A DNA stretch of 64,000 nucleotides, from the NCBI GenBank assembly GCA_963732005.1, contig CAVSXT010000003.1:800218-864217 (forward strand), in the 5' to 3' direction. The notes beneath the pieces are model-generated. The model had not been told where the DNA came from, searched no databases, and saw nothing but the letters and a program-made list of their open reading frames with translations. This document shows positions 12,150-42,006 of the stretch, piece after piece (within the stretch, counting starts at the first letter, position 1; each line of letters starts with the position of its first letter). Both the position numbers and the translations under genes were made by a program. The DNA comes from an uncultured Acidobacteriota bacterium. GTDB taxonomy: Bacteria; Acidobacteriota; Thermoanaerobaculia; Multivoradales; UBA5704.

Positions 12150-12767
12150 ATGAAGCGCGTCCTTTCCTTTGTCCTCTGCGCCATCCTGGCCTCTGCATCG
12201 CTGCTGGTGGCGCAACCGCCCAGCAGCAAGCCGCGGATCGCCGTCCTCGAGTTCACCAACAAAGCCGACAACCAGTGGTGGTTCAAGAGCGGCGCCGCCG
12301 CCGCGCAGGACATCTTCGTCACCGAGCTGGTCAAGAGCCGCAAGTTCGCGGTCATCGAGCGCGAGAAGATCAACGCCATCATGGAGGAGAAGGGCCTCAC
12401 CCTCGGCGGCGACATCGATTCCAAGACCGCGATGAAGATCGGCAAGCTGCTCGGGCTCAACTACATGCTCACCGGCGCCGTGACCGAATACGGCAACACC
12501 GACACCCGCGCCCACGGCCCAGGGGTGGGCTCCCTGCCCAGCTTCGGCGTCCACAAGCGGAGCTTCGTGGCGGCGCTCAATGCCCGGCTGATCAACGTCT
12601 CGACCGGCGAGATCGTCTGGGCCGACGAGGCGCGCAAGGAGGAGAGCAGCTCCAGCGTCTCGGTGGGCGGTTTCGGCGGCGGCGTCGACGACAGCCGCAT
12701 GTTCGACAAGGTCCTGAAGCCCTGTATCGAGCAGCTGGTCGCCAGCCTCAAGTCGGCCGACCTTTAA
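12150..12767 (+). CDS. CsgG/HfaB family periplasmic/outer-membrane protein
   Basis: Signal peptide; RIAVLEF, F.VIERE.I..IMEE, KIGKLLG..YMLTGAVTEYG, RLINVSTGEIVW; AGGAGA SD. Confidence 0.85.
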   Translation: MKRVLSFVLCAILASASLLVAQPPSSKPRIAVLEFTNKADNQWWFKSGAAAAQDIFVTELVKSRKFAVIEREKINAIMEEKGLTLGGDIDSKTAMKIGKLLGLNYMLTGAVTEYGNTDTRAHGPGVGSLPSFGVHKRSFVAALNARLINVSTGEIVWADEARKEESSSSVSVGGFGGGVDDSRMFDKVLKPCIEQLVASLKSADL

Positions 12768-12824: not shown

Positions 12825-14951
12825 TCAGGGCACGAAGCTGATCTTCATCGTGGTCCACATCTTGACCCGCACGCCGTCCTTGGTCGCCGGGTTATAGGAG
12901 CTGTGGCGGGCCACCTCGAGCGCCGCCTCGTCGAACCCCAATCCGACGGCGGTGCCCACCTGCTCGGCCCGTTCCACCTTCCCTCTCTCGTCCACCAGCA
13001 CCCGCACCTCCACGTCGGCCGCCCGGTTCATGCGGCGCGCGGCGGTGGGATAGCGGGTCGCCGGGCGGTAGATGATCTTGGGCATCGACACCCCCGGCCC
13101 GGGTTGCACCAGGTCACCCACCTGGATCTGCGGCTGGCGGCCGGCGCCGGCATCGGCGGCCGGCGCCGCGGGGACCGGCGTGGCCGGCACCGCCGGCGCC
13201 GCGGCGGCAGAAGCAGAGGCGCTGCCCGCGGCCGCGCCCGCCGGCGAGCCCGGAACCGCCGGCGACTGGCTTCCAGGCGCCGCCGAGCGAGCGCCGCCGC
13301 CGGTGCTCGCGGCCCCCGCCGGCGGCGATACCGGTTCGGTCCGTGCCGGGTGGACCTCGGCCGGCGCCGGCGAGGTTTCGGCCGCCCCGGCAGCGCCGCC
13401 CGCCGCCGCCTGGCGCTCGCCCCGGGTCTTGTCCTTGTCCTGGCTGGCTGCCGCGGCACGGCGGCTTTCCTCCAGCTTCTGCTGCAGCTGCTTGATGTTG
13501 TCGTCGTACTGACCCTTGAGCTTGCTCTCGAGCTCCTTGCTGCGGGCCTCGATCATCTGCTGGATCTGCGCCTGCAGCGCAGCGGCGTTGCGGGCGGCTT
13601 CGGCGGCGCTGGTTGGGCCGGCCGCCGCCTGGGTGGGCGCCGCCGGGACCGGCTTGGCGCCGCCGCCGCGGCCGAACAGCAGGTAGCCGACAGCCCCGAG
13701 CGCCAGCAGCGCGGCGACGCCGAGGCCGATCCAGAGCGGCATTCGGTTGCCGCGGCTGCCGCGGGTGCCGCCGCCGGCGCGGGCGGCGGCGCCGGCGCCG
13801 GCCGGATGGGCGGTCGTGGCCGCGCCAGCCCAGCCGGCGTCCGGGACCGCGCCGGCGCTGCCGCCCGCGCCGGCCGTGCCGGCATGGATGGCTCCCGCGC
13901 CGGCGGCGCCCGCGGCGCCGGCGAACGCCGCGGCTCCCGCGCCCGCCGCCGGGCGGCGCGGCAGCTCGAGGTTCTTCTCGGCCTCGATCTCGTGGCTCTC
14001 GCGATCGATCTCGTCGCGAAACAGGTTGTGCATGAAGAAGGCGAGGTTGAAGGTGGTCGAGGTGTACTGGCCCTCGATCATCAGCCTCGAGATCGTCTTG
14101 TGCCAGGTGATGGCGTCGGGGATGCGCTGTTCGCGCGGCGCCAGGCTCTGCTTGAGCAGCGCGGCGAGCGCCGGCGGCAGCGGCGTCCCCTCGTTCGGCA
14201 GCACCAGCTCGTCGATCATCGGCAGCAGCTGGGTGAGCGTCGCGTAGGTGGCCGCCGTTGCCGCCTGGCCCAACTGGCCATTCGGCGGCAGCGGCAGGCG
14301 CTCGCTCGCCAGCAGCTCGTAGAGGATGGCGCCCAGCGAGAAGACGTCGTCGCTCTTCGCCACCGCCGCGGCGCTTGCCGACTCCGGCGCCGGGTAGGCG
14401 CGCAGGTCGTCGTTGCGCCAGCCGCCAGCCCAGAGCTCGCGCAGGCCGGGCGCGGTCTCGAAGCCGAGCAGGCGGGTCTCGCCCTCGTTCGAGATCATCA
14501 CCAGGTGGGGCGCCACGAAGCCGTGCAGCAGCCGCTCGTCCTGCACCCGCGTCTCGTAGGCCGCCGCCAGCGCCAGCGCCAGGCGCTCGGTGATCAGCAG
14601 CGCGTGCTCGATCGGGATCGGTTGGCGCTGCCGCGCCGCCTGCGCGAACAGGTTGGCGAGGTTCTTGCCTGACACGTAGTCATAGGCGACGTAAGGGAAG
14701 CTGCGGACCTTGCCGAGGTCGACGCCGCTGCCGATGTTGGGGCTGCGCAGCGCCTGCTGCACCGGGGCGCGGCCGGAGATCCGCTGCCAGAGCCGCTCGC
14801 CATCCATTCCCTGGCCGTTGAAGACGCGCAGCAGCACCACCCGCTCGATGCCCTCCCGGCCCATCCGGCCGGCGCGGAAGGTCTCGCCGAGAGCGTCCTC
14901 GCTCAATTTCTTGAGCAGGAGGTAGTTCCCGAATTCCTCTGGGATGTTCAT
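12825..14951 (-). CDS. Ser/Thr pseudokinase-TM-TonB C-terminal fusion
   Basis: N-terminal Hanks kinase fold with degenerate motifs; one TM (LWIGLGVAALLALGAVGYLLF); coiled coil; Pro/Ala linker; TonB_C (YP.AARR...V.V.VLVDERGKV...GFDEAA...YNPATKDG.RVKMW). Confidence 0.8.
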   Translation of the reverse strand: MNIPEEFGNYLLLKKLSEDALGETFRAGRMGREGIERVVLLRVFNGQGMDGERLWQRISGRAPVQQALRSPNIGSGVDLGKVRSFPYVAYDYVSGKNLANLFAQAARQRQPIPIEHALLITERLALALAAAYETRVQDERLLHGFVAPHLVMISNEGETRLLGFETAPGLRELWAGGWRNDDLRAYPAPESASAAAVAKSDDVFSLGAILYELLASERLPLPPNGQLGQAATAATYATLTQLLPMIDELVLPNEGTPLPPALAALLKQSLAPREQRIPDAITWHKTISRLMIEGQYTSTTFNLAFFMHNLFRDEIDRESHEIEAEKNLELPRRPAAGAGAAAFAGAAGAAGAGAIHAGTAGAGGSAGAVPDAGWAGAATTAHPAGAGAAARAGGGTRGSRGNRMPLWIGLGVAALLALGAVGYLLFGRGGGAKPVPAAPTQAAAGPTSAAEAARNAAALQAQIQQMIEARSKELESKLKGQYDDNIKQLQQKLEESRRAAAASQDKDKTRGERQAAAGGAAGAAETSPAPAEVHPARTEPVSPPAGAASTGGGARSAAPGSQSPAVPGSPAGAAAGSASASAAAAPAVPATPVPAAPAADAGAGRQPQIQVGDLVQPGPGVSMPKIIYRPATRYPTAARRMNRAADVEVRVLVDERGKVERAEQVGTAVGLGFDEAALEVARHSSYNPATKDGVRVKMWTTMKISFVP

Positions 14952-17974: not shown

Positions 17975-20570
17975 ATGTCCGCTCCTCGCCGTGTGCTCCT
18001 GCTGAGCCTGTCGCTGGCCCTGGCCGTGGTGTCCGTGATCCGGGTGCCGCCGGCTGCCGGCCGGCAGGCGCCGTCAGCGGCGACCCCGGAAGCCCCGGAA
18101 GGTACCGACCAGCAACAGCAGCCATCGTCCCCGTCGCCGGGTTCCCCTGCGCTCGCCACGACCGAGCCGCAGGCAGCCAACACCGGCAACGTGCCGGCCT
18201 CGGCCCCGGCGGTCAATCCGGCCTCGCCGCCGGGGACCGCCTTCGGCCAGCCGGCGCAAGGCTCGATCGGGCCGTCGCCGACCGGCACCGTGCCGTCGAG
18301 CTCGCCGGCGGCCACCCCGGGCGGCGGCCACCGGGTCAATCCGGTCACCGGCGCGCCTGCCGCCCCCGGCGGTGGCCGCAAGGGGCCGCCGCCCGGCGCC
18401 GGCGCCAACCGCATGGACTTCAACCTCAAGTTCCAGGACGGCGCCACCGCCGCCGGCAGCGCCGTGACCTTCGACTACAAGCGTGACGACTACGCGGTGC
18501 TGACCGGCAACGTCCAGGTCCATTACCAGGACCTCGACCTCACCGGCGACCACGTCGAGATCGACCTCACCTCCAAGCACGTGGTGGCGCAGGGCAACGT
18601 CATCCTGGACCAGGGGCCGAAACGCCTGACCGGCACGACGCTCAACTTCGACCTCGACACCAAGACCGGCAAGATGCTCGAGGCGACCGCCTACGTGGCG
18701 CCCGACTACTACTTCGCCGGGCGCCGAGGTCGACAAGGTCGGCGAGAACACTTACGAGGTGTACGACGGCCTGTTCACCTCCTGCACCCAGCCGAATCCC
18801 GACTGGAGCTTTCACATGGGCCGCGCCACCGTCGAGGTGGACGGCTACGCCCACATGCACAACGTCACCATGCGGGTGAAGTCGCTGCCGGTGTTCTACA
18901 CCCCGTGGATGCTCTACCCGGCGTTGAAGGACCGGGCCTCGGGCCTGCTGGTGCCGACCATCCATGCCTCGGGCAACCGCGGCGAGTCGCTGGACCTCGC
19001 CTACTTCCAGACCCTGGGGCAGAGCTACGACGACACCATCCACGTCGATCCCTACCTGCGTGGCTATCTCGGAGTGGGCGACGAGTTCCGCTATCACCCG
19101 ACCGAGGGGACCTGGGGCGACATCACCGGCTTCGCCGTCAAGGACCCCGCGGACAACGGCAAGCTGCGCTGGAAGATCGATGCCAACCACGACACCGAGG
19201 ACCTGCCCTTCGGCATGCGGATGGTCCTGCAGTACCAGAAGTACTCGGATCTCGACTACCTGCGCGATTTCGAGCGCGACTTCGACACCAGCTCGCTGCG
19301 CTTCGTCGAGAGCCGCGCCTTCATCACCGGCAACTGGGGCCCCAGCCTGCTCAACATCCTGCTCAACGACAACCAGATCCTGTTCAACACCGGGCTCACC
19401 ACCGGCCCCGAGCTGACGCTCGACGTGGAACAGAAAAAGCTACCCGAGATCGAGTACCAGCTGCGCTCGACCAAGCTCGGCCCGACGCCGTTCTACCTCG
19501 AGATGGACAACGTCCTGGACTATCTCGACATCATCCGCCCCGGCTCGTACTCCGGCGACTACGGCCGCATCGATCTGTTCCCGCAGATCACCCTGCCGGT
19601 CAACACCTTTTCCTGGCTCAACTTCTCGCTCACCGGCGGCTATCGCTACACCTACTATCAGCGCAGCCTCTCGACCTCCATGGAGCAGGTCGGCACGCCG
19701 CCGGTGCTGACCGAGGTGCAGACGTTCAACGACTCCAGCCTGCACCGCGCGCTGCCCTACGGCACCGCCCAGATCGTCGGCCCCTCGTTCTCCAAGATCT
19801 TCGAGAAGGAGATCGCCGACTTCGCCAAGTTCAAGCACGTCATCGAGCCGCGCATCACCTACACCTATTACGGCCCGTTCAGCGACTTCCGCCAGCTGGC
19901 GCTGCCGCAGTTCGACCAGATCGACGCGCCGCTGTCGACCAACAACGTGCAGGTGGCACTGGACAACCGGCTGCTGGGCAAGTCCGATCAGGAAAATGCC
20001 AGCGCCCGCGAGCTGGCGCTGTTCGAGATCTCGCGGATGTACAGCTTCGATCCCAATCTGCCGCTGGAGCTTTCGGAGGACCTCACCAAGCATTCGAGCG
20101 CCAGCCCCTGGGACGCCATGCTGCGCCTGCAACCCAGCGACAAGACCAGCCTCAAGGGCGAGGTGCAGTACAGCGGCCTGTTCCACCGCATCTCCGCCAC
20201 CTCGTTCTCGAGCGACATCTCGCTGCCCGGCAATCAGTCGGTCGGCCTCACCTGGTTCACCAACTACGTGCCCGACAACGGCATGGCGGTGAGCGATCAG
20301 ATCCGCGTCAACACCGCGCTCAACATCATCCCGCAGAAGCTCTCGATCCAGGCGCAGGTCGGCTGGGACGTGGTCAACCATCTGCTGGGGCAGCAGTACT
20401 ATGCGATCAACTGGTCGGAGCAGTGCTACGGCTTGCGCCTCGAGATCCGCAAGTTCGCGGCGTTGACCGGTCCGCGGCTGAGCGACACCGACATCCGTTT
20501 CTCGCTCAGCCTGAAGGGTATCGGCACCGTGCTCGACCTCAACAACCGCAGCACCCAGACGGTGCCTTGA
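17975..20570 (+). CDS. lptD: LPS-assembly protein LptD, split by an apparent +1 frameshift at about 18720
   Basis: Signal peptide and OstA-like N-domain in one frame; after removing one G from GGG 18719-18721 it reads YFAGAEVDKVGENTYEVYDGLFTSC..P.W, then R.SGLL.P and a beta-barrel to 20570. Confidence 0.8.
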
Positions 20571-20610
20571 GGCCGCCGTTGCGGCCGCGAGCCGGCGGGA
20601 GATCCCGATC

Positions 20611-21678
20611 ATGAAGGGCCTCATCCTGTCCGGAGGCAAGGGCACGCGGCTGCGGCCGCTCACCCACACCTCGGCCAAGCAGCTGGTGCCGGTGGCCAAC
20701 AAGCCGGTGCTGTTCTACGCCATCGAGTCGATCGTCGCTGCCGGCATCACCGACATCGGCATCATCGTCGGCGAGACCGGCAGCGAGATCCGCGCCGCGG
20801 TCGGGGACGGCGCGCGCTTCGGCTGCGCCGTCACCTACATCGAGCAGGACGCGCCGCGCGGGCTGGCGCACGCGGTGCTGATCGCCGAGCCGTTCCTGGG
20901 CGACTCGCCGTTCGTGATGTACCTGGGCGACAACCTGATCGCCGGCGGCATCACCGGCCTGGTCGAGGAGTTCCGCCGGCTGGCTTGCAACTCCGAGATC
21001 CTGCTCGCGGAGGTGCCGAACCCGCAGCAGTTCGGGGTCGCCGAGCTGACCGCCGACGGCAAAGTGCGGCGGCTGGTGGAGAAGCCGCGGGAGCCGCGCA
21101 GCAACCTTGCCCTGGTCGGCGTCTACATGTTCGACTCCTCGATCTTCGAGTCGGTGCGGCGGATCGCGCCGTCGGCGCGCGGCGAGCTCGAGATCACCGA
21201 CGCCATCCAGGACCTGATCGACCGCGGCCTCGCCGTGCACCCCCACCTGGTGCGCGGTTGGTGGAAGGACACCGGCAAGCTCGAGGACATGCTGGAAGCC
21301 AACCGCATCGTGCTCGAAGGGCTCGAGCCCCGGTCCGGCTCGGAGATCGGTGCCGGCAGCCGTCTCGAGGGCCGGGTGCAGGTGGGGACCAACGTCGAGA
21401 TCGTCGATTCGCTGGTGCGCGGCCCGGCGGTGATCGGCGACGGCGCGCGTCTCGAGAGCGCCTTCGTCGGTCCCTACACCTCGATCGGCGAGCGCTGCAC
21501 CCTGGTGTGCTGCGAGCTCGAGAACTCGATCGTCCTCGCCGACTCGACGATCCGGGACATCCCGCTGCGCATCGACGGCTCGCTGATCGGGCGCAACGTG
21601 CGCATCGTCAAGACCGATCAGAAGCCCAAGGCCTACCGCTTCATGGTCGGCGACAACTCCGAGGTGGGCATCACCTAG
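20611..21678 (+). CDS. rfbA: glucose-1-phosphate thymidylyltransferase (long form)
   Basis: GG.GTRLRPLT...KQL.PVANKP, LGDN, EKP and RGELEITD; hexapeptide tail. Confidence 0.92.
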   Translation: MKGLILSGGKGTRLRPLTHTSAKQLVPVANKPVLFYAIESIVAAGITDIGIIVGETGSEIRAAVGDGARFGCAVTYIEQDAPRGLAHAVLIAEPFLGDSPFVMYLGDNLIAGGITGLVEEFRRLACNSEILLAEVPNPQQFGVAELTADGKVRRLVEKPREPRSNLALVGVYMFDSSIFESVRRIAPSARGELEITDAIQDLIDRGLAVHPHLVRGWWKDTGKLEDMLEANRIVLEGLEPRSGSEIGAGSRLEGRVQVGTNVEIVDSLVRGPAVIGDGARLESAFVGPYTSIGERCTLVCCELENSIVLADSTIRDIPLRIDGSLIGRNVRIVKTDQKPKAYRFMVGDNSEVGIT

Positions 21679-21692
21679 TGTCACCGCCGGCG

Positions 21693-22571
21693 ATGCGGAC
21701 CTTGATCCTGGGGGGAACCGGCATGCTCGGCCGCGCGGTGCTGGCGGCGGCGCAGGAGCGCGGCTGGCCGGCCACGGCGCTGTCGCGCCAGCAGGCCGAC
21801 GTCGCCGACGAGGCGCGGCTCGACCACTGGTTCGGCGAGTTCCGCCCGGAGGTGGTGATCAACTGCGCCGCCATCACCCGGGTCGACGACTGCGAGGCGC
21901 AGCGGCCCCACGCCATGGCGGTCAACGGCGAGGCGGTGGGGTGCGTGGCGCGGGCGGCGGCGCGCGGCGGCGCGCGACTGTTGCAGGTGTCGACCGACTA
22001 CGTCTTCGCCGGCGAGCGGCGGCAGCAGCCCTACCGCGAGGACGACCCGACCGGTCCGCGCTCGGCCTACGGCCAGAGCAAGCTGCTGGGCGAGGAGCGG
22101 GCGCTGACCTACGACCGCAGCCTGGTGGTGCGCACCAGCTGGCTGTTCGGCGACGGCGGCCCCAACTTCGTCGCCGCCATCGCCGGCCAGATCGCGCGCG
22201 GCACGCGGCCATTGCGGGTCGTCGCCGACCAGCTCGGGGCTCCCACCTACACCCCGTTCCTGGCGCGGGCGCTGCTCGATCTGGCGCCGCTGGCGGCCAC
22301 CGGCGTGGTGCACTATCGCAACCGGGAGCCCGTCTCCTGGTACTCTTTTGCCGCCGAGATCGCACGCCGCTGGCCGGGACCGCAGGGTGAGGTGGAGGTG
22401 GTGCCGGTCACCACGGCAGAGTTTCCGCGTCCGGCGCCGCGGCCCGCCTACTCGGTGCTGGCGGTGGAACGCTGCGAGGCCCTGCTCGGGCGCGCGGTGG
22501 AGAGCTGGGAGCCGGGGTTGGAGGAGTATCTGTCGCAGCTCGTGGAGTTGCGGAATGGGAGGAGTCGATGA
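21693..22571 (+). CDS. rfbD: dTDP-4-dehydrorhamnose reductase
   Basis: GGTGMLG, STDYVF, YGQSKL.GE, DQ.G.PT and PAPRP.YS. Confidence 0.92.
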   Translation: MRTLILGGTGMLGRAVLAAAQERGWPATALSRQQADVADEARLDHWFGEFRPEVVINCAAITRVDDCEAQRPHAMAVNGEAVGCVARAAARGGARLLQVSTDYVFAGERRQQPYREDDPTGPRSAYGQSKLLGEERALTYDRSLVVRTSWLFGDGGPNFVAAIAGQIARGTRPLRVVADQLGAPTYTPFLARALLDLAPLAATGVVHYRNREPVSWYSFAAEIARRWPGPQGEVEVVPVTTAEFPRPAPRPAYSVLAVERCEALLGRAVESWEPGLEEYLSQLVELRNGRSR

Positions 22572-23623
22572 GGGCTTTGATCACCGGAATCACCGGCTTC
22601 GCCGGCTCACACCTGGCGGAGTACCTGCTTGCCGAGCACCCCGACGTGGAGGTGGCCGGCACCTACCGCTGGCGCAGCCGCATGGACAACATCGAGCACC
22701 TGCGCGACCGGATCCAGCTCGTCGAGACCGACCTGCGCGACTTCACCTCGGTGCATGCGGCGCTGGAGCGCACCCGTCCCGACTATCTCTTCCACCTGGC
22801 GGCGCAGAGCTTCGTGCCGGCGAGCTGGTCGGCGCCCAGCGAGACGCTGATCACCAACATCACCGGCCAGACCAACCTCTTTGAGGCGATCCGCGCGTTG
22901 CGCCTGGACCCGGTGGTGCAGATCGCCTGCTCGAGCGAGCAGTACGGCCTGGTGCTGCCGGACGAGACGCCGATCAAGGAAACCAATCCGCTGCGGCCGC
23001 TGTCGTCCTACGCCGTGTCCAAGGTGGCGCAGGACCTGCTCGGCTACCAATATTTCCAGAGCTACGGCCTGAAGGTGATCCGCACCCGCGGCTTCAACCA
23101 TACCGGGCCGCGGCGCGGCCAGGTCTTCGTCACCTCCAACTTCTGCAGCCAGGTGGCGGCCATCGAGCTCGGCCTGCAGGAGCCGGTGATCCGGGTCGGC
23201 AATCTCGACGCCATCCGCGATTTCACCGACGTGCGCGACATGGTGCGCGCCTACTGGCTGGCGGTGACGCGCGCCACCCCCGGCGAGGTCTACAACATCG
23301 CCACCGGCACCGGCATCCGCATCCGCGAGGTGCTCGACCGCCTGCTGGCGCTGACCCCGGCCAAGGTCACGGTCGAGATCGATCCCGAGCGCCTGCGTCC
23401 GTCGGACGTCGAGATCCTGATCGGCGACAGCTCGAAGTTCCGCGCCGACACCGGCTGGGAGCCGCGCATCCCCTTCGAGCAGACCCTGGCCGACCTGCTC
23501 GCCTACTGGCGCCAGACCCTGGCGGCGCGGCAGGGCCGGCTGGCCGCGGTGTCGCGAGCGAGCGCCGCGCCCGAGCCGGCGGCGCACGGGGTGCCGGCGC
23601 CGCTGCCCACGGCGGGTGCCTGA
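22568..23623 (+). CDS. GDP-mannose 4,6-dehydratase-like extended SDR
   Basis: LITGITGFAGSHLAE, HLAAQSFV, YAVSK, FNHTGPRRG.FVTS and RDF. Confidence 0.8.
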   Translation: MRALITGITGFAGSHLAEYLLAEHPDVEVAGTYRWRSRMDNIEHLRDRIQLVETDLRDFTSVHAALERTRPDYLFHLAAQSFVPASWSAPSETLITNITGQTNLFEAIRALRLDPVVQIACSSEQYGLVLPDETPIKETNPLRPLSSYAVSKVAQDLLGYQYFQSYGLKVIRTRGFNHTGPRRGQVFVTSNFCSQVAAIELGLQEPVIRVGNLDAIRDFTDVRDMVRAYWLAVTRATPGEVYNIATGTGIRIREVLDRLLALTPAKVTVEIDPERLRPSDVEILIGDSSKFRADTGWEPRIPFEQTLADLLAYWRQTLAARQGRLAAVSRASAAPEPAAHGVPAPLPTAGA

Positions 23624-23631
23624 CACCGGCC

Positions 23632-24561
23632 ATGCGCCTGCTCGTCACCGGCGTCGGCGGCTTCGTCGGCACGCGTCTCGCGCGCCGGCTGCTGGCCTGC
23701 GGCGAGCAGGTGAGCGGCACCGCTTTCGGGGCGGCGCCGCTGATCGACGGCGTGCCGCTGCGCGAGGTCGACCTGCTGGACGCGGCGGCCGTCGCCGCGG
23801 CGGTGAGGGCGGCAGCTCCCGACGTGGTGGTGCACCTGGCCGGACTGTCGCACGTCGGCGACTCGTGGAAACACATGGCCGAGTACTTCCGGGTCAACGT
23901 GCTGGGCACCGAGAACCTGCTGGCGGCGGCCAGGGCGGCGGCCGTCGAGCGGGTGGTGGTGGCCTCGTCGGCCGAGGTCTACGGCCTGGTGCCGGAGGCC
24001 GAGCAGCCGATCGACGAGCGGCGTGAGCTCAGCCCGCACACTCCCTACGCCCTGACCAAGGCGGCGGCGGAGCGGTTGGCGCTGGCGCAGGGCGCGGTGG
24101 TGGTGCGCTCCTTCAACCTGGTGGGGCCCGGCCAGTCGGCGCGCTTCGCGCTGCCGACGTTCGCCGCGCAGCTGGCGGCGATCGCCCGCGGCGAGCTCGA
24201 CAACGTCCTGAAGGTCGGCAACCTCTCGGCGCGGCGCGACTTCCTGCACGTCGACGACGGCGTCGACGCCTACCGGCTGATCGCCGAGCATGGGCGCCCG
24301 GGCGAGATCTACAACGTGGCGAGCGGCAACGCCGTCTCGATCGGCGAGGCGCTCGACCGCCTGATGGCGATCTCCAGGGTGCGGGCGAGCGTCGAGGTCG
24401 ATCCGGCGCGCGTGCGGGAGGTCGACCTGCCGCTGCTGCTCGGCGACGCCCGGCGGTTGCGCGGCCTGGGATGGGAGCCGCGCCGCAGGCTCGACGACGC
24501 GCTGGCCGAGCTCTGGGCGGAGGCGAGCGGTGGCAGCAGCGCGGCGGGGGTCTCGGTATGA
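23632..24561 (+). CDS. NDP-sugar reductase/epimerase (Rmd-like SDR)
   Basis: TGVGGFVG, HLAGLSHV, SSAEVYG, YALTK and FNLVGPGQ. Confidence 0.75.
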   Translation: MRLLVTGVGGFVGTRLARRLLACGEQVSGTAFGAAPLIDGVPLREVDLLDAAAVAAAVRAAAPDVVVHLAGLSHVGDSWKHMAEYFRVNVLGTENLLAAARAAAVERVVVASSAEVYGLVPEAEQPIDERRELSPHTPYALTKAAAERLALAQGAVVVRSFNLVGPGQSARFALPTFAAQLAAIARGELDNVLKVGNLSARRDFLHVDDGVDAYRLIAEHGRPGEIYNVASGNAVSIGEALDRLMAISRVRASVEVDPARVREVDLPLLLGDARRLRGLGWEPRRRLDDALAELWAEASGGSSAAGVSV

Positions 24562-25595
24562 GAGTGCTGGTGACCGGAGCCACGGGTTTTCTGGGCCGGC
24601 GCCTGGTCGAGGAGCTGGCGCCGCGCCACGACCTGCGGGTGCTGGTCCGCCCCGCCGCCGCCGGCACCACCGCTGACATCGCGGCCGGCGCCCGCCGCGG
24701 CGCCTTCCCGGCGGGTGTCGAGGTGGTGCCCGGCGACGTCACCGATGGTGCGGGGTTGCGGCAGGCGGCCGCCGGCTGCGAAGCGGTGGTCCACGCCGCG
24801 GCGCTGGTCAAGATCCTGGCGCCGGCGGCTGAGTTCGAGCGCGTCAACGTCGGCGGCCTCGAGAACGTGCTCGCGGCTGCCGCGGCCGTGGGCGCCGCCA
24901 AGGTGGTCTACGTCTCGAGCTTCATGGCCCTGGGGCCGAGCGAGGGCGGGCCCGGCGGGGTGCTGGACGAAGCGGCGGCCGGAGGCGGCGAAGCCAGGGT
25001 CTGGATCAACGCCTACGAGCGCACCAAGGCGCTGGCCGACCGGCTGGCGCGGCAGGCCATCGCCGCCGGCCAGCCGCTGGTGGTGGTCTACCCCGGCGTG
25101 ATCTATGGGCCGGGTGAGATGACCGAGGGCAACCTGGTGGTGCGCCACGTCCTCGATCTGGTGCACCGCCGCCTGCCGGCGTTGCTCGGGACGCCCGGGC
25201 GCCGGTGGTGCTACGTCTTCGTCGACGACGTGGCCCGCGGCATCGGCCAGGCGCTGGCCGGCGCCAAGTCCGGCAGCCGCTATGTCCTGGGGGGCGAGAA
25301 CGTCGCGCTGGGCGACTTCTACGCCATGGTCGAGGAGCTCTCGGGAGTGCCGGTGCCGCGGCGCCGCCTGCCGGACGGTCTGGCCAAGGCGATCGGCGCG
25401 GCGCAGAAGGGGTGGGCGCGGTTGCGTGGCACCACGCCGGCGCTGACGCCGGACCTGGTCGAGGTGTACCGCCACGATTGGGCCTACAGCTCGGCGCGGG
25501 CGGCCGCGGAGCTGGGCTACACCTTCCGGCCGTTGCGCGAGGGGCTGACCGCCACGCTCGCCTGGCTGCGCGAGACGGGACAGTGGCGCCCCTGA
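24558..25595 (+). CDS. extended SDR resembling farnesol dehydrogenase/HpnA
   Basis: TGATGFLG, HAAALV, VNVGGL.NVL, SSFMALG, YERTK, YPGVIYGPG, HDWAYSS..A..ELGY..R.L.EGL; recalled similarity to plant FLDH. Confidence 0.75.
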   Translation: MRVLVTGATGFLGRRLVEELAPRHDLRVLVRPAAAGTTADIAAGARRGAFPAGVEVVPGDVTDGAGLRQAAAGCEAVVHAAALVKILAPAAEFERVNVGGLENVLAAAAAVGAAKVVYVSSFMALGPSEGGPGGVLDEAAAGGGEARVWINAYERTKALADRLARQAIAAGQPLVVVYPGVIYGPGEMTEGNLVVRHVLDLVHRRLPALLGTPGRRWCYVFVDDVARGIGQALAGAKSGSRYVLGGENVALGDFYAMVEELSGVPVPRRRLPDGLAKAIGAAQKGWARLRGTTPALTPDLVEVYRHDWAYSSARAAAELGYTFRPLREGLTATLAWLRETGQWRP

Positions 25596-26965
25596 CGCCG
25601 CCGGCGCCCCCGCCGCCCGACGCGCCCGGCCTGGCCCGCCACGAGGCGCTGCGCAAGGCGACCCATATCGGGATGGGGCTGATCGCCTTCAGCCTGCGCT
25701 TGCTGGGGCCGTTCTGGTCGGCGCTGCTGGCGGCCGCGGCGCTGCTCAACAACCTCTTCGTGCTGCACCGCATCGGCGGCAAGCGCCTGTGGCGCGATGC
25801 CGAGCACCAGGCGGGAGGGGCGCTGGGCATCGTGCTCTACCCGCTCACCGTGCTGCTGCTGATCCTGGTCTTCTACCGGCGCCTGGAGGTGGCGGCCGCG
25901 GCCTGGGGCATCCTGGCTTTCGGCGACGGCATGGCGACCGTTTTCGGCATGACCTGGGGCCGCCGCAAGCTGCCCTGGAACCCGGCGAAGAGCTGGGCGG
26001 GCAGCGCCGCCTACGTGGCCTTCGGCACCCTGGCGGCCGCGGCGCTGCTGACCTGGACGGCGCCGGAGCGGCGCTACAGCTGGGCGTTCGCGCTGGTGGC
26101 GGGGGGCGCGGCGGCGCTGCTGGCGGCGGCGCTCGAGTCGGTGCCGCAGGGGCTCGACGACAACCTCGGAGTGCCGCTGGTCGCCGGCATCTTCCTCTTC
26201 GGCATGGCGCTGACCCACGGCCAGTGGCCGGCGTTCCTCGGCTGGCCGTTCGCCGATCGCCTGCTGCTCGGGGCGGCGATCAACGCCGTGCTGGCCGGCG
26301 GCGCCTGGGCGGCGCGCACCGTCGACCTCTCGGGGGTCGCCGCCGGCTGGCTGGTGGGCACCGCCATCTACGGCTTCCTCGACTGGCGCGGCTGGCTGCT
26401 GCTGGTGGCCTTCTTCGTCATCGGCAGCGCCTGCACCAAGCTCGGCTACCGGCGCAAGGCGGCCGCCAACCTGGCGCAGGAGCGGGGCGGCCGCCGCGGC
26501 GCGCGCCACGCCCTGGCCAACGCCGGGGTGGCGGTGGCCTGCGCGGTCTTCGCGGCGCTGACTCTCTACCCGGCGCTGTTCGCGGTCGCCTTCGCCGCCG
26601 CCTTCGCCACCGCCGCCGCCGACACCGCGTCGAGCGAGATCGGTCAGCTCGTCGGGCGGCGCACGTTCCTCATCACCACCCTGCGCCCGGTGCCGCGCGG
26701 CACCGAAGGGGCGGTATCACTCGAAGGCACGCTGGCCGGGATCGCCGCCGCCGCGGCGGTGGGGGCGCTGGGGGCGAGCCTGGGGCTCTACCCCTGGGCC
26801 TGCCTGCTGCCGGTGATCGGCGCCGCCTTCGTCGGCACCACCTTCGAGAGCGTGGTGGGAGCGACCCTCGAGCGGCGCCGGCTGCTCGACAACGAGGCGC
26901 TCAACTTCCTCAACACCCTGGTCGGCGCGCTGGCCGGTGCCGCGCTGGCGGCCCTGGCGCTGTAG
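25583..26965 (+). CDS. fused phytol/dolichol-type kinase (CTP_transf_1) + DUF92 membrane protein
   Basis: N-half: EALRKATH, GDGMA..FG..WG, KSWAGS, LES...GLDDNL. C-half DUF92: T..GY..K, ERGG.RG..HALAN, ADT.SSEIG, VPRGTEGAVSLEGT, ES.VGA, NEALNFLNT. Confidence 0.8.
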   Translation: MAPLTPPAPPPPDAPGLARHEALRKATHIGMGLIAFSLRLLGPFWSALLAAAALLNNLFVLHRIGGKRLWRDAEHQAGGALGIVLYPLTVLLLILVFYRRLEVAAAAWGILAFGDGMATVFGMTWGRRKLPWNPAKSWAGSAAYVAFGTLAAAALLTWTAPERRYSWAFALVAGGAAALLAAALESVPQGLDDNLGVPLVAGIFLFGMALTHGQWPAFLGWPFADRLLLGAAINAVLAGGAWAARTVDLSGVAAGWLVGTAIYGFLDWRGWLLLVAFFVIGSACTKLGYRRKAAANLAQERGGRRGARHALANAGVAVACAVFAALTLYPALFAVAFAAAFATAAADTASSEIGQLVGRRTFLITTLRPVPRGTEGAVSLEGTLAGIAAAAAVGALGASLGLYPWACLLPVIGAAFVGTTFESVVGATLERRRLLDNEALNFLNTLVGALAGAALAALAL

Positions 26966-26969
26966 CGAC

Positions 26970-28010
26970 ATGGAACCGGCGAACCCTGCGGCCGGGGCGG
27001 TGGCGGCCTCGCTCCCCGCGGCGACCAGCAAGCCGCGGCTCTACGCGGCGCTCTCCCGCCCGTTCACCCTCCTGCCGCCGCTGCTCGGTATCGTCTCGGG
27101 CTCGGTCTGCGCCTTCGGCTCGGCCCACGATCCCGATCCGGCGCGCCGCCTCACCCTGGCGGTGGCGGCGACCGTCGTGCTCGGCTCGCTCTGCGCCAGC
27201 CTGATGAACGCGGCCTCGAACGCCATCAACCAGATCTACGACCTCGAGATCGACCGGCTCAACAAGCCCAACCGGCCGCTGGTGACCGGCGCCCTGAGCC
27301 GCCGCGAGGCCTGGCGCTTCAGCTGGCTGCTCTATGCCCTGGCGCTGATCCCCACCTGGCTGGTGGTGCCGCACCCCTACGACAGCCTGGGCGCGAAGCT
27401 CGCAGCGCCCGTCGCCCGCCACGAGACCTTCTTCATCTATCTCGCCGGGCTGCTGTTCACCTTCGTTTACTCGGCGCCCGGGCTGGGCCGCACCAAGGTG
27501 CGGGGAATGGCCGCCAACTTCACCATCGCCGTGCCGCGCGGAGTACTGCTCAAGGTTGCCGGCTGGGCGATGGTGGCGCGGATCGGCTACGTCGAACCAT
27601 GGTACCTGGGGGGCATCTTCGGCCTTTTCCTGATCGGCGCCTCCTCGACCAAGGACTTCGCCGACATCGCCGGCGACCGTGCCGGCGGCTGCAAGACCCT
27701 GCCGATCCTGCATGGCGTGCGCAAGGCCGCCTGGATCATCAGCCCCTTCTTCGTCCTCCCCTGGCTGCTCCTGCCGCTGGGAGCCAGGCTGCGCGATCCG
27801 CAGGACCCTACCCATGCCGTCCTCACCGGCAACCCCACGCTGCTGAGCCTCCTCGGCGTGCTGCTGACCGCCTGGGGGGCCTATACCGTCTACCTCCTGG
27901 TGCGCGACCCTGCCTCGCTCGCCGAGACCGAGAACCATCCCTCCTGGCGCCATATGTACCTGATGATGATGGCGGCGCAGGTAGGCTTCGCGCTGGCCTA
28001 CATCTTTTGA
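26970..28010 (+). CDS. UbiA-family prenyltransferase (chlorophyll-synthase/DGGGPS-like)
   Basis: SRPFTLLPP, NAINQIYDLEIDRLNKPNRPLVTG, YSAP and KDFADIAGDRAGGCKTLP; multi-TM. Confidence 0.88.
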   Translation: MEPANPAAGAVAASLPAATSKPRLYAALSRPFTLLPPLLGIVSGSVCAFGSAHDPDPARRLTLAVAATVVLGSLCASLMNAASNAINQIYDLEIDRLNKPNRPLVTGALSRREAWRFSWLLYALALIPTWLVVPHPYDSLGAKLAAPVARHETFFIYLAGLLFTFVYSAPGLGRTKVRGMAANFTIAVPRGVLLKVAGWAMVARIGYVEPWYLGGIFGLFLIGASSTKDFADIAGDRAGGCKTLPILHGVRKAAWIISPFFVLPWLLLPLGARLRDPQDPTHAVLTGNPTLLSLLGVLLTAWGAYTVYLLVRDPASLAETENHPSWRHMYLMMMAAQVGFALAYIF

Positions 28011-28022: not shown

Positions 28023-28502
28023 CTATTCCGGGCCGGAGTCGAAGCGGGCCGCCGCCTCCATGACCTGCGATCCCGGGGGCACGATGGCCAGGCACTCGAC
28101 CCCTTCCGTTTGCGCCGCGCGCACCAGGGCGACGTCGAAAGCCGAGAAAAGCACCTCTCCGGGTGAAGCGATGTCGCGCAGCCCGCATACCGCCGCCAGG
28201 TGGACGGCGTCGAAGCCGCGCAGGAGGTGACGGACCGCCAGCCGGCCCGCCCGCTGCTCGTCGATGTCGAGCCGCAGGCAGCCGCGCCAGGAGGTTTCGA
28301 AGTCCTCGCGCACGATCTCGAAAGACGTGTCGTCGAGGTCGCCCCGGTGCGCCCGGCGGGCGAGCGCGCTGAGCGTTTCTGGAAATGCCACGCGCGACGA
28401 GGCCGTAGCCTCCGCCGCGCCAACCCACTCCCGAACCAGGTCGCTGTGCTCCTCCTCGATGTGGAGCTTGACCAGGCTGCTGGTGTCCAGGTAGAGGATC
28501 AT
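28023..28502 (-). CDS. vapC: VapC-family PIN toxin
   Basis: ILYLDTSSLVKL, E..SAL, LRGFDAVHLA and FSAFD. Confidence 0.88.
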   Translation of the reverse strand: MILYLDTSSLVKLHIEEEHSDLVREWVGAAEATASSRVAFPETLSALARRAHRGDLDDTSFEIVREDFETSWRGCLRLDIDEQRAGRLAVRHLLRGFDAVHLAAVCGLRDIASPGEVLFSAFDVALVRAAQTEGVECLAIVPPGSQVMEAAARFDSGPE

Positions 28503-38291: not shown

Positions 38292-39926
38292 TCAAGTCCC
38301 CAGGCGGGGAGCCGGCGCGGGCGGCCCGCCGTCGTTGTGCCAGTCGCCGCCGGCGGCGATGAACAGCTGCGCCGTGTCAGCGAGGCGCTGGCCGACGGCG
38401 CGCACGTAGCTCAGGCGGGTCTCGGAATAGGTGTTCTCGGCGGAGATGAGCTGCAGCGCGCTGGTCTTGCCGGCCGCGTAGCTCGAGCGCTGCAGCGCCA
38501 GGGACCTGGCGGCGATGTCGCGCGCCCGCTGGGACACCGCCACCGACTCGGCGTCGTGCTGCAGCGCGGAGAGCGTGTCCGCGACCTGGCCGAAAGCCAG
38601 CAGGATGGTCTGCTGGTAAGTGGCGAGCTGAGCCTGGTAGGCGTCGATCGCGGCGCGCCGCTGCGCGTTCAGGGCGCCGCCGCGGTAGAGCGGCGCGTCG
38701 AGGCTGCCGCCGGCGCTCCAGGTCCTGCCGGCCGCCTGAAACAGGCCGGCCAGCGTCAGCGCGTCCTGGGCCAGGGAGGCGGACAGCGTGATCGATGGGT
38801 ACAGCTGAGCGGTCGCGACGCCGATCGCCGCGCTGTCCGCGTGCAGCTCGGATTCGGCCGCCAGGATGTCCGGGCGGCGGCGGACGAGCTCCGATGGCAG
38901 GCTCAAGGGCAGCTCGTCCGGCAGCGTCAGCTCGTCGATGTCGAAGTCCGGCGGCGATCCCTGGCCTGGGGCCCTGGCGGCGAGCACCGACAGCGCGTGG
39001 CGCGCGACGCTGAGCTGCTGGTTCAGGGAGGGCAGCTGGATGCGATCGCTCTCCAGCTGCGCCGCGGCGGTGAGGACGTCGCTCCTCGCCACCTTCCCGG
39101 CGTCGAACTCGCGCTGCACGAGGTCGAGGTTTTTCTGATCGTTCTTGATCAGGTCCTCCACGGTCGCGATCTGGAAGCGAGTCGAGGCGATGGTGATCGC
39201 CTCGGTGACGGTGTTGCCGGTCAGGGTCAGGTACGCCGCCGCCAGCTGGTAGCGCTGGGCATCCGCCAGCGCCGTCTCCTGCTCGACGTGCCGGCGGGTG
39301 CCGCCGAACGCATCGATCGAATAGCTGGCGGTCGGTCCCAGGGAAAAGAGGTTCGCGACCCCGCGCCCCGCGCCGGTGCCGGTGCCGCGCCGCGCGCCGG
39401 CGCTCAGATCGGCCTGCGGGAACAGCGCGGCGCGGGCCTCGATGATCGCCTCCTGGGCCTGCGCCAGGGTAGCCCTGGCGGCGGCGAGGCTGTAGCTGGC
39501 GGCGATCGCCTGGCGCAACGTCTCGTCGAGCCGCGGCGAATGGAACAGGTTCCACCATTGGTCGGGGATCTCGCGCCCTAGCGCGATGCGCTGGTTGGTG
39601 ACCGGGGCAGTCTGCGAGCTCTCGGGAGCCAGGGTGCTCGGAGGGCTCGCGGTGTTTGCCGGCGTTGCCGGTGTCGCCGGAGTCACCGGTGTCGCCGAGG
39701 TCCCGGGACTCGTGGGGCTCGCCGGCGGCGGCGCCGCCGCCGGCTCCGGCGGCAGGTAGGCGCCGACGTCCGGCGGCGCCGGTGGCTTCCAGTTCGGGCC
39801 CACCACGCAACTTTCCATTGCCAGCGCGAGGACCAGCGCCACTGCCAGCGGGAGCACCAGCGCGAACGCTGGCGCCATGACCATCGCCAGCGCCCTGGTG
39901 CGCGCCAGCTTTCGCTTATTATTCAT
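38292..39926 (-). CDS. outer-membrane efflux lipoprotein (TolC/NodT)
   Basis: Lipobox-like ESC, WWNLF, LPSELVRRRPDILAAE and A.IGVA.A.LYP. Confidence 0.9.
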   Translation of the reverse strand: MNNKRKLARTRALAMVMAPAFALVLPLAVALVLALAMESCVVGPNWKPPAPPDVGAYLPPEPAAAPPPASPTSPGTSATPVTPATPATPANTASPPSTLAPESSQTAPVTNQRIALGREIPDQWWNLFHSPRLDETLRQAIAASYSLAAARATLAQAQEAIIEARAALFPQADLSAGARRGTGTGAGRGVANLFSLGPTASYSIDAFGGTRRHVEQETALADAQRYQLAAAYLTLTGNTVTEAITIASTRFQIATVEDLIKNDQKNLDLVQREFDAGKVARSDVLTAAAQLESDRIQLPSLNQQLSVARHALSVLAARAPGQGSPPDFDIDELTLPDELPLSLPSELVRRRPDILAAESELHADSAAIGVATAQLYPSITLSASLAQDALTLAGLFQAAGRTWSAGGSLDAPLYRGGALNAQRRAAIDAYQAQLATYQQTILLAFGQVADTLSALQHDAESVAVSQRARDIAARSLALQRSSYAAGKTSALQLISAENTYSETRLSYVRAVGQRLADTAQLFIAAGGDWHNDGGPPAPAPRLGT

Positions 39927-42006
39927 AACGCAGCGCATCGATCGGATTGAGCCGGGAAGCCTGCCGGGCGGGATAGTAGCCGAAGAAGACGCCGATGGCG
40001 GCGGAGAACAGGAACGCGGCAATTACCACCACGGGGTACAGCAGCGTCGGCCAGCCGGCCACCATCGAGATCACCTTCGAGGCGATGACGCCCGACAGCA
40101 CACCGGCCCCGCCGCCCATCAGGCTCAGCAGCGACGCCTCGACCAGGAACTGCAGCAGGACGTGCAGGCGCCGGGCGCCGATCGCCATCCGGATGCCGAT
40201 CTCGCGGGTGCGCTCGGTGACCGACACCAGCAGGATGTTCATGATGCCGATGCCGCCGACGAGCAGCGAGATCGAAGCGATCGCCGCCAGCAGCAGCTCC
40301 ATGACCCGGCTGCTCTCCTCCGCCACCTCGGCGATCTCGGTGAGGTCGCGCACGGTGAAGTCGTCGGGCTTCCCGGGTTGGATGCGATGTTCCTTCTCCA
40401 GGGTCTGGGTGACCTGCTGCAGCGCCGTCTTGACCTCCTCCGGGCTGCGCGCCTGGACGAACATGGTGTGGACGAACCCCGTCAGCTTGGGCTGGATGCC
40501 GAACGGGTTGGGCGGCGGGACGAAGACCGTCGTCTGGTTCTGGGCCGAGCTCGGAGTGGCCACGCCCAGCACCCGCTCTTGCGAGGTGCGGAACGGCATC
40601 AGGACGACGTCGTCCTGATCCTGTCCCGACGCCGAGTGGCCCTTGATTGCCAGCACGCCGACCACCTCCATGGCGACGTTCCTGACCCGGATGCTGGCGC
40701 CGATCGGGTCCTGGAACTCGCCGAAGAGGTTCGCCAGCACGGTCTGGCCGAGGAGGCAGACCGTGGCGCCTTCGTTCTCGTCCTTGTCGGTCAGCTTGCG
40801 GCCGGCGATCACGTTCCAGTCGCGAATGGTCAGGTAGCTCGGAGTCACTCCCTGGACGCTGGTCGACCAGTTCAGGTTGCCGTTGACGACCTGGGCGTTC
40901 TGCCGGTTGACGAAGCTGAGGTTGGCCACGGCACCGTCTTCCTTGAGGATCGCGGCGCCGTCGGTGGTGCGCAGGGTCGAGGCGCTGCCGATGCCCGCGC
41001 GCACGCCATTGACGCGGGTCGTTCCCGGCAGCACCACCAGCAGGTTGGTGCCCAGGCTCTCGAGCTGCGCCTTGAGGGCGGCGCGCGCCCCCTCTCCCAC
41101 CGCCAGCATGGCGATCAGGGCGGCGACGCCGATGAAGATGCCGAGCATGGTCAGCGCCGAGCGCAGCTTGTTGCGGCCGATGCCGCGGCCGGCGGCGAGC
41201 AGCGCCATCCACAGGAAGGAGCGGACCTCGGCGAACGGCGCCGGCCGCTGCTCCGGCTCCTCGACGGGAGGTGGTTGACCGGTGGCGGCGGCGGCGATCC
41301 GCTCGTCCGACACGATCTCGCCGTCGCTCATCATGACGATGCGATCGGCGGCCTCGGCCAGCGAACGCTCGTGAGTCACCAGGACCACGGTCAGGCCGCG
41401 CTCGCGGTTCAGCGTCCGTATGGTGCCCAGGATCTCCTTGGCCGTCTGCGAGTCGAGATTGCCCGTCGGCTCGTCGGCCAGCAGGATGGTGGGGTTGTTG
41501 ATCAGGGCGCGGGCGATCGCCACCCGCTGCTGCTGGCCGCCGGAGAGCTGATTGGGATGGTTGCGCATCCGATCGGCCAGGCCGAGCAGGGTCAGCGTCT
41601 CGCGCACCTTCCTGGAGCTGTCGGTCAATTGGCCCGAGTAGAACAGGGGCAGCGCGACGTTCTCGGCGGCGCTGGTGCGGGCCAGCAGGTTGAAGCTCTG
41701 GAACACGAAGCCGATGCGCCGGCTGCGGATCCGCGCCAGCTCGGGCTCGTTCAGTCCCGCGACGTCGATGCCGTCGAGCAGGTACTCGCCGCTCGTCGGC
41801 AGGTCCAGGCACCCGACGATGTTCATCAGGGTCGATTTGCCAGACCCCGACGCGCCCATGATGGCGACGAACTCCCCGCGCTCGATCGTCAGCTCGACGC
41901 CGCGGAGCGCGTGGACCTCCTGATCGCCCAGCTGATAGACCTTGGTCACGCCGCGGACGGCGATGACCGCGTCGGGCCGCGTGCGTGTCACCTCGCCCGG
42001 CGTCAT
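39919..42006 (-). CDS. macB: MacB-type ABC ATPase-permease
   Basis: [36 protein letters not shown] and P..ALRYE. Confidence 0.92.

Follow-up and report, generated by a model that had tools for sequence, protein, structure and literature searches.

What do three genes with the appearance of an isoprenoid pathway do at the end of an operon that is headed by an lptD-like gene and continues with genes for nucleotide sugars? The question is raised by a 64,000-nucleotide (nt) stretch of DNA from an uncultured acidobacterium (the window, by which we mean the whole stretch; G+C about 72%), which is contained in DNA runs labelled as soil metagenomes and in which a short-chain dehydrogenase/reductase (SDR), a two-domain membrane protein (the fusion) and a transferase of the UbiA family are encoded one directly behind the other:

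24558..25595, plus strand: extended SDR of 345 amino acids, by its sequence a diverged HpnA-family paralogue and a proposed prenal/prenol oxidoreductase
25583..26281, plus strand: N-terminal half of the fusion, polyprenol (dolichol/phytol)-kinase-like by remote profile similarity
26282..26965, plus strand: C-terminal half of the fusion, DUF92/TIGR00297 (VTE6 family; PF01940), a proposed prenyl-phosphate kinase
26970..28010, plus strand: UbiA-family transferase (PF01040) of a fusion-associated clade

The original prediction, which was made from the letters of the stretch alone, had placed three tightly packed genes here as the end of an lptD/nucleotide-sugar operon, and this is indeed what is found, all three lying on one strand with overlaps or a 4-nt gap between them. 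The ATG of the SDR gene overlaps the stop of the gene before it by 4 nt, and the fusion gene (25583-26965, encoding 460 amino acids) starts with a GTG and overlaps the SDR gene by 13 nt, a later in-frame start being one that would lose a conserved motif formed by R24 and H28. The UbiA gene in turn begins with ATG 26970 (alternative GTG 26937), 4 nt past the stop of the fusion. Gene order is conserved in relatives, and the distribution of the genes across the phylum fits the notion that the UbiA-family enzyme depends on the two-kinase protein, with the SDR as the most faithful companion of the latter. Our answer, which we hold with about evenly balanced confidence, is that the three genes constitute a single module, by which a free isoprenoid alcohol is salvaged through re-activation and the product is spent in a prenylation.

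Family relations of the three proteins

The C-terminal half of the fusion (residues 234-449) belongs to the DUF92 family, PF01940 matching it with 197.3 bits (3.7e-58, cut-off 27.5). The affinities of the N-terminal half emerge from the comparison of profiles, since a profile built from 17 such halves (A3) is aligned by hhalign with a probability of 100% (E 1.8e-42, 193 columns) to a profile of ten aligned stand-alone proteins of about 200 amino acids (A4), which were selected by similarity from the matches to A3 as query. Six of these ten are named dolichol, phytol or polyprenol kinase by JGI or NCBI, the JGI names being dolichol kinase and phytol kinase and the NCBI name on one A4-type protein being 'diacylglycerol/polyprenol kinase family protein', and three of them match PF01148, P0370 doing so at 40.9 bits, above the cut-off. 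As A4 was picked from matches to the query, the alignment therefore shows that the N-half groups with proteins annotated as polyprenol kinases, not that it is one, and a kinase activity of its own is a prediction. Among 39 fused proteins of 31-52% identity, residues R24, H28, D115, K136, E185, D193 and N194 of the N-half and K292, D347, T348, E352 and N441 of the C-half are invariant or nearly so, and an AlphaFold model of the fusion is confident (pLDDT 93). The profile of the N-half found no matches among the sequences of the PDB, and in the cyanobacterial genome behind locus L139 PF01148 matched only CdsA. The fused family is large, comprising 6114 representatives (clusters at 50% identity) that match at E<=0.001, of which 423 do so at E<=1e-30, and the best 150 matches are mostly 430-475 amino acids long and aligned end to end. 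A word-index search for homologues of the whole fusion listed only close relatives within the Thermoanaerobaculia and is therefore uninformative on breadth.

The SDR carries an intact TGxxGxxG motif (VTGATGFLG) and an intact YxxxK motif (YERTK), as expected of an extended SDR, and matches the Pfam models Epimerase (1.1e-26, profile positions 1-240 of 240), NAD_binding_4 (7e-25) and 3Beta_HSD (2.9e-19). Its scores with models of defined enzymes are as follows:

HpnA, TIGR03466: 209.7 bits, below the cut-off of 367.65
Sterol demethylase SdmB: 111.8 bits, cut-off 600
Thioester reductase domain: 97.4 bits, cut-off 213.35
OleD: 79.2 bits, cut-off 580
Nucleoside diphosphate (NDP)-sugar enzymes: 55 bits or less, various cut-offs

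A clustering of the SDR with sugar epimerases, which would have spoken against the original prediction, is thus not seen. The genome furthermore has a true HpnA (464.1 bits) elsewhere, which is the sole paralogue of the SDR that tblastn detected (E<=1e-8) and is about 34% identical to it. The best score being with HpnA and below its cut-off, and a separate true HpnA being present at this distance, the SDR is by its sequence a diverged HpnA-family paralogue, and neither HpnA itself nor a sugar enzyme like its neighbours. The true HpnA is found on another contig (L161, C4:2018000-2027000) in a row with a squalene-hopene cyclase (693 bits) and an HpnG-like phosphorylase (89 bits, under its cut-off), and the genome therefore probably makes hopanoids. 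For the likeness to plant farnesol dehydrogenase (FLDH, At4g33360 type) that the original prediction had proposed, and which is a conjecture here, the one lead is that the nearest language-model cluster to the SDR of the window is 80% eukaryotic, mostly Streptophyta (score 0.99). Its closest solved chain is 3wj7, which we take to be Gox2253, matched over the full length with an E-value of 1.8e-39, the runner-up reaching only 2e-13. Gox2253 is termed an aldehyde reductase in the available part of a preprint (10.64898/2026.10.06.757028).

Membership of the third protein in the UbiA family, as originally predicted, is confirmed by the hidden Markov model PF01040 (112.3 bits, 3.1e-32, cut-off 34.2), and its translation contains NQIYDLEID and KDFADIAGD, presumably the two Asp-rich motifs of UbiA. 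The best NCBIfam models, PRK12884 with 99 bits, ChlG with 94 and DGGGPS with 76, are each 170-220 bits short of their cut-offs. As a chlorophyll synthase the protein reaches 94 of 313 bits with PRK07566 and 69 of 436 with TIGR02056, as DGGGPS 76 of 296 with PRK12882, and as decaprenyl-phosphate phosphoribosyltransferase (DPPR synthase) 16.4 of 234 with NF008977 (E 0.0047), and among solved relatives chlorophyll synthase is matched at 3e-14 and DGGGPS (6m31) at 6.1e-13. A tree of 21 rows unites nine fusion-adjacent UbiA proteins, including the one of a Candidatus Iainarchaeum, in one clade with 99/99 support, apart from ChlG, from the archaeon's own DGGGPS-like gene, from MenA, CtaB and the 4-hydroxybenzoate/MqnP types and from the DPPR synthases. 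Since each type is represented by a single reference (a cyanobacterial one for ChlG) and several long branches meet, the tree, in which the protein stands in a clade of its own against ChlG, DGGGPS and MenA, resolves the clade itself but not its sister group. The other UbiA-family genes of the genome are a heme O synthase, an MqnP-like gene, a DPPR-synthase equivalog and two weak ones; the equivalog (L158, C3:400900-402600; 304 bits, cut-off 234) is, on sequence grounds, a hint that the organism has a pentose donor linked to polyprenyl phosphate. The original prediction had also remarked on the lack of a photosynthetic context, and in keeping with this, Mg-protoporphyrin methyltransferase, the sole chlorophyll-pathway marker searched, was not found in the 91.7%-complete genome; neither was PcrB/GGGPS, and for geranylgeranyl reductase there were three weak matches in it, none over the cut-off.

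Gene order and co-occurrence among genomes

Loci encoding fused proteins were binned by identity to the fusion of the window and counted only where at least 1.1 kb of flank was available on the relevant side. These loci, which were sought with a 12-row alignment of the fusion among other queries, are kin and represent the best 80 of each search, and the adjacency script mis-flags some of them (L129 was counted as unfused, and a split SDR match in L142 was missed):

At least 65% identity: SDR directly upstream in 73 of 74, UbiA directly downstream in 72 of 72
50-64% identity: SDR directly upstream in 22 of 28, UbiA directly downstream in 12 of 29 (in 7 more within the locus)
Below 50% identity: SDR directly upstream in 9 of 17, UbiA directly downstream in 4 of 15

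The expected co-occurrence in relatives is thus borne out in the close loci, and of the complete route that had been envisaged the trio stands in close relatives, whereas UbiA is often missing beside distant fusions, so that the route is complete in only part of the family. The pair of SDR and fusion extends to a metagenome-assembled genome (MAG) of the Planctomycetota (L122), and the whole trio, with a divergent SDR, to an archaeon with a 0.7-Mb genome assigned to Iainarchaeum (L135), in which the order is phosphodiesterase (PF01663), radical SAM protein, SDR, fusion, UbiA and polyprenyl synthase (L135:8108-8986). This archaeal genome has four UbiA-family genes, of which one is DGGGPS-like (204 bits) and one DPPR-synthase-like. 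The trio also occurs without rml genes, for example in L062, L066, L070 and L073.

In a sample of 41 genomes of the order, the window's own included, the fusion is present in 36 and the UbiA orthologue in 30, all of them within the 36, and the two genes adjoin each other in all 30 but G033. The five fusion-negative genomes have no UbiA orthologue, a single paralogue fragment of 36% identity being all that was found, and of the SDR they have paralogues only, at 40% identity or less. Among 151 genomes of the phylum that are at least 90% complete, 71 match the fusion (E<=1e-20) and 53 match UbiA (E<=1e-40), both being present in 52, a kinase-type protein only in 19, UbiA only in one (G085) and neither in 79. 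Two of these genomes, G184 and G064, are unpublished and have both; without them the numbers are 50, 19, 1 and 79 of 149. Sorted by the form of the kinase-type match, the 71 genomes divide as follows:

Full-length fusion: 43 genomes, 40 with UbiA
Two adjacent pieces: 2 genomes, 2 with UbiA
Partial match in longer open reading frames (ORFs): 13 genomes, 10 with UbiA
Other partial match: 2 genomes, none with UbiA
Stand-alone DUF92: 11 genomes, none with UbiA

A kinase-type protein hence accompanies UbiA in 52 of the 53 UbiA-positive genomes, although according to the table of gene places UbiA lies on another contig or far off in 21 of the 52. We give bare counts and no statistical test, because the genomes are kin and not independent of one another.

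The longer variant among the partial matches is represented by L162:4004-5614 (genome G093) and by 12 further genomes of the phylum sample, ten of them in family f35. Its ORFs measure about 520-580 amino acids in 11 of the 13 genomes and about 410-420 in two, and it matches residues of about 100-400 of the fusion only, with a partial DUF92 match.

The operon, the proposed route and its alternatives

In the window the trio closes a packed run of eight plus-strand genes (17975-28010), the junctions of which range from -13 to +8 nt. The five genes upstream of the SDR, and a hairpin at the end of the run, are:

17975..20614, plus strand: LptD-like outer-membrane protein, first gene of the operon (Pfam LptD_N, 25.5 bits, cut-off 20.4)
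20611..21678, plus strand: glucose-1-phosphate thymidylyltransferase, long form (RmlA; TIGR01208, 454.9 bits, cut-off 320)
21675..22571, plus strand: dTDP-4-dehydrorhamnose reductase (RmlD; TIGR01214, 274.2 bits, cut-off 224)
22568..23623, plus strand: NDP-sugar 4,6-dehydratase-like extended SDR (Pfam GDP_Man_Dehyd, 2.2e-83)
23632..24561, plus strand: NDP-sugar epimerase/dehydratase-like SDR (Pfam Epimerase, 2.2e-54)
27981..28001, plus strand: terminator-like hairpin with T-rich tail, overlapping the UbiA gene's end (consensus scan)

The start of the RmlA gene overlaps the LptD-like gene by 4 nt. Of the 'lptD-rfb' operon that had been predicted, the long-form RmlA and RmlD are secured by scores above their cut-offs, but the two other SDRs reach no equivalog, the first scoring best in NCBIfam with gmd (176 bits, cut-off 415) and the second with LegB (140 bits) and GalE (115 bits), both under their cut-offs; no rmlC was seen when the genes of the operon were compared with NCBIfam, and the first gene matched no Pfam domain beyond LptD_N. 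The consensus scan that gave the hairpin returned 10 sites where 3.2 were expected for the region, and is alone no evidence of function. Downstream follows a convergent ORF on the minus strand (28023-28460) without a Pfam match at E<=1e-6. Elsewhere in the window lie genes for a CsgG-like lipoprotein (12150-12767), a protein with a TonB C-terminal domain (12825-14951) and a MacB-type ABC transporter with an HlyD-family adaptor (39919-43817).

The tie to lptD recurs in relatives. LptD is found upstream as LptD-SDR-fusion-UbiA in L117, as LptD-fusion in L090 and, with a DUF92 protein of 536 amino acids (the longer variant) in second place and UbiA in third, in L162, the equivalent ORFs of all three loci matching PF04453 (LptD) or LptD_2, and tblastn places lptD upstream in L105, L108, L113, L115, L120, L126, L129 and L141 as well, which comprise several Polarisedimenticolia and other loci. 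In L108 and L129 the gene that follows lptD and directly precedes the SDR encodes an RmlD equivalog. In one sub-lineage a PMT_2 glycosyltransferase (GT-C fold) is inserted between fusion and UbiA (L049:7402-8961, L096:8957-12193), and directly upstream of distant fusions in unclassified bacterial MAGs there are VTT/DedA membrane proteins (L133:5196-5843, L144:5296-5955).

Some further neighbours may be recorded here. In L061 a hybrid histidine kinase takes the place of PMT_2 between fusion and UbiA, and in L049 a pair of Phd/YefM antitoxin and PIN toxin lies downstream of UbiA. A gene of family PF01663 (type I phosphodiesterase/nucleotide pyrophosphatase) overlaps the end of UbiA in a Polarisedimenticolia MAG (L105:8324-9637) and is also found beside the module of the Iainarchaeum (L135:1749-3698), a recurrence across two domains of life. 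In three loci from other classes of Acidobacteriota (L105:10240-11133, L141:9652-10572, L106:9201-10472), the module is followed at a distance of 1-2 kb by a gene for an M48 peptidase that is encoded on the other strand.

In the salvage route that we propose, the SDR would interconvert an isoprenoid aldehyde and alcohol, and because of an arginine after its second beta-strand it would probably reduce the aldehyde with NADPH. The N-half of the fusion would then phosphorylate the alcohol, probably at the expense of CTP by analogy with dolichol and phytol kinases, the DUF92 half would add a second phosphate as plant VTE6 does on phytyl phosphate, and the UbiA-family enzyme would transfer the prenyl group from the resulting allylic diphosphate onto an acceptor. 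The substrates, the nucleotide, the direction of the SDR reaction, the chain length (C15-C20 or a long polyprenol) and the acceptor are parts of this scheme that we infer. The cell envelope is the most likely destination of the product, given that several acidobacterial classes have the module placed behind lptD. A more specific version of the proposal, which we consider rather unlikely, is that the dedicated UbiA clade, supplied on the spot by the two-step prenol kinase and the aldehyde reductase, O- or C-prenylates an outer-membrane or lipopolysaccharide-related acceptor and thereby yields a novel prenylated envelope lipid or glycan of the Acidobacteriota; such a component would explain why the module has remained tied to lptD, and in many cases to rmlD as well, in several classes, and on this reading the copy of the module in a DPANN archaeon would serve to scavenge isoprenoids of its host.

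A number of observations weigh against the salvage route. The enzymatic roles of all three proteins are assigned from sequence and context. The N-half of the window's fusion scores 17.7 bits (E 0.0033) with PF01148 (CTP_transf_1), under the cut-off of 24, and among 15 diverse N-halves four (that of the window and three of 14 others) match this model at E<=1, all below 24 bits, and the A4 proteins with which the N-half groups are a similarity-picked set; of the VTE5/VTE6-like fusion that was originally predicted, the DUF92 part is thus well founded and the kinase part is a remote profile similarity. Even the C-half is about 2 bits short of the narrower model TIGR00297 (204.0 bits, cut-off 205.85). 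In structural comparison, VIA-align against 48,161 chains puts the CDP-archaeol synthase CarS (5guf, Z 6.7) and CdsA (4q2e, Z 6.0) at the top for the C-half region and CarS also at the top for the model of the N-half (Z 6.0, rmsd 3.1, 103 residues, 24% identity; CdsA at Z 4.5), but these Z values are middling, unrelated helical proteins score within 1 Z of these matches, and Foldseek with the models of both halves returned nothing at E<=0.001. An hhalign comparison of the two halves with each other gave a probability of 2.4%, which is not significant, and we therefore claim no homology between them from our own data and cite a published HHpred link below instead. At the level of genomes, three well-assembled members of the order (G028, G029 and G040) have the fusion without UbiA, UbiA is absent beside many distant fusions (4 of 15 adjacent below 50% identity), and the kinship of the genomes makes the co-occurrence counts overstate independence. 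Finally, the GT-C (PMT_2), DedA/VTT and RmlD neighbours of some loci point to the biology of carrier lipids and glycans and not to a small prenylated product.

This last point leads to an alternative that deserves a minority share of our confidence, namely that a long-chain carrier phosphate, polyprenyl or of the dolichyl type, is synthesised or recycled by the SDR together with the Sec59-like kinase for the assembly of O-antigen or other envelope glycans, and that the DUF92 half and UbiA act on a long-chain lipid too, for example in building a polyprenyl-phosphate-linked donor. It can point to a eukaryotic precedent, in that the dolichol pathway employs the SDR DHRSX (available part of PMC11250103), and to the linkage of archaeal DUF92 genes with uppS (available part of PMC5898192). 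A role in glycan assembly would furthermore explain the siting with lptD and rml, and in several classes lptD is indeed the immediate or a near upstream neighbour (as in the window, L117, L090, L162 and the tblastn loci), just as RmlD directly precedes the SDR, PMT_2 separates fusion from UbiA and VTT/DedA precedes the fusion in the loci named above. The GT-C and DedA neighbours are however confined to few loci, and a kinase that converts a monophosphate into a diphosphate runs contrary to the carrier cycle as generally known. In addition, the UbiA of the window scores like the users of prenyl diphosphates ChlG, DGGGPS and HPT and barely like DPPR synthase, for which the genome has a separate equivalog, and DHRSX is a classical and not an extended SDR.

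One may also ask whether the three genes share a pathway at all, or whether an inherited gene order in an envelope super-operon merely keeps together an unrelated reductase, a prenol kinase pair serving general pools and a UbiA for quinones or lipids. Sharing of the gene order is largely confined to a single phylum, where synteny can outlast a functional link, SDR and UbiA are each missing beside a fair share of distant fusions, and UbiA is distant or on another contig in many of the both-positive genomes. We nonetheless regard this explanation as decidedly unlikely, since the trio recurs without rml genes and in an archaeon, the coding regions overlap in the window, and inherited gene order by itself does not readily account for the co-varying presence and absence, UbiA occurring without a kinase-type protein in 1 of 151 genomes and not at all in the 11 with stand-alone DUF92. 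Very improbable, finally, is an archaeal-type ether lipid, in which a DGGGPS-like UbiA would put geranylgeranyl, fed by salvaged geranylgeraniol, on a glycerol phosphate backbone. DGGGPS models do rank among the best matches of the UbiA (76 and 72 bits, with 6m31 among the solved relatives), and the trio has an archaeal relative in L135, but the protein falls more than 200 bits short of every DGGGPS cut-off and no geranylgeranyl reductase exceeds its cut-off; the route is also made unlikely by the failure to find PcrB/GGGPS in the 91.7%-complete genome and by the separation in the tree of the fusion-associated clade from the archaeon's distinct DGGGPS-like gene.

The salvage of prenols is established in plants, and we know of no worked-out role for it in bacteria outside the phototrophs. 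If our proposal of a salvage module is correct, the trio offers a compact, conserved and testable case, in which the SDR may define the entry step and the UbiA clade would have a product to be identified. The fusion should perform both phosphorylations in one polypeptide and would thus lend itself to supplying engineered pathways with prenols. Should the linkage to lptD be functional, the module would moreover point to an isoprenoid constituent that has so far gone unrecognised in the envelope of the Acidobacteriota, a phylum with membrane lipids in use as environmental proxies.

Relation to known systems

The SDR resembles HpnA over its full length, both being extended SDRs with a glycine-rich motif and YxxxK, but it stays below the HpnA cut-off and lies outside the hopanoid cluster, in which the genome's own HpnA adjoins squalene-hopene cyclase and HpnG. 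To 3wj7, which we take to be Gox2253, it is likewise similar over its full length. The synthesis of mycobacterial arabinan by DPPR synthase and DprE1/DprE2 also combines, as is generally known, a UbiA-family enzyme with an SDR-type step and rhamnose genes, but DPPR synthase is matched by another gene of the genome (304 bits) and not by the UbiA of the window (16 bits), and the two are separate in the tree.

In the eukaryotic dolichol pathway, dolichol kinase acts after the steps that are catalysed by DHRSX. This route has neither a DUF92 nor a UbiA step, and DHRSX is of another SDR type. An SRD5A3-like reductase did not appear in the locus of the window, although no search aimed at it was made. 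A likeness nevertheless exists in that the dolichol route (DHRSX, SRD5A3, dolichol kinase) too employs an SDR on an isoprenoid alcohol or aldehyde ahead of a Sec59-type kinase, the available part of PMC11250103 assigning to DHRSX the first and third steps of the revised pathway.

Closest in domain order is the archaeal family arCOG02245 of Makarova et al. (2015, PMC5898192), which in the available part of that paper is described as a Sec59-like N-terminal domain joined to DUF92, for example in Mbar_A3310, and is predicted to catalyse a kinase step in isoprenoid metabolism. The same source links DUF92 by HHpred to the cytidylyltransferase family, with two metal-binding aspartates conserved, and names uppS as the sole conserved neighbour. 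arCOG02245 thus shares with the fusion of the window the order of domains and the inferred role as isoprenoid kinase, and differs in the neighbourhood that the paper reports for it, the conserved neighbours in the family of the window being lptD, the HpnA-family SDR and a UbiA of the distinct clade. The architecture of the fused kinase and its predicted role are already published, and in view of this and of the size of the fused family the fusion is therefore not new. Within the literature covered, which excludes subscription journals and supplements, we found no description of a bacterial cluster of SDR, fusion and UbiA, and the conserved trio of Acidobacteriota, with its HpnA-family SDR, its fusion-tied UbiA clade and its linkage to lptD, appears to be undescribed. 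Enzyme activity for prenol salvage is known from Sulfolobus, according to the available part of PMC9385802.

The salvage of phytol in plants and cyanobacteria (VTE5/FOLK, VTE6 and then HPT, ChlG or MenA) is the system that the proposed route resembles in its sequence of steps, since it likewise has dolichol-kinase-like and DUF92 proteins followed by a UbiA-family transferase. In the available part of PMC9782597 VTE5 and FOLK are prenol kinases and VTE6 is a prenyl-phosphate kinase that converts phytyl phosphate to phytyl diphosphate, and in that of PMC3223725 COG1836 is tabulated under 'phytol-phosphate metabolism'. The kinases of phytol salvage are however separate proteins, whereas the window has both in one polypeptide, and phytol salvage is a system of phototrophs, whereas the window comes from a non-phototrophic soil acidobacterium in which the chlorophyll marker was not found. 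Furthermore, the UbiA of the window falls in none of HPT, ChlG and MenA by cut-off or tree, and the unit of the window, unlike phytol salvage, adds an SDR and sits in an lptD/rml operon.

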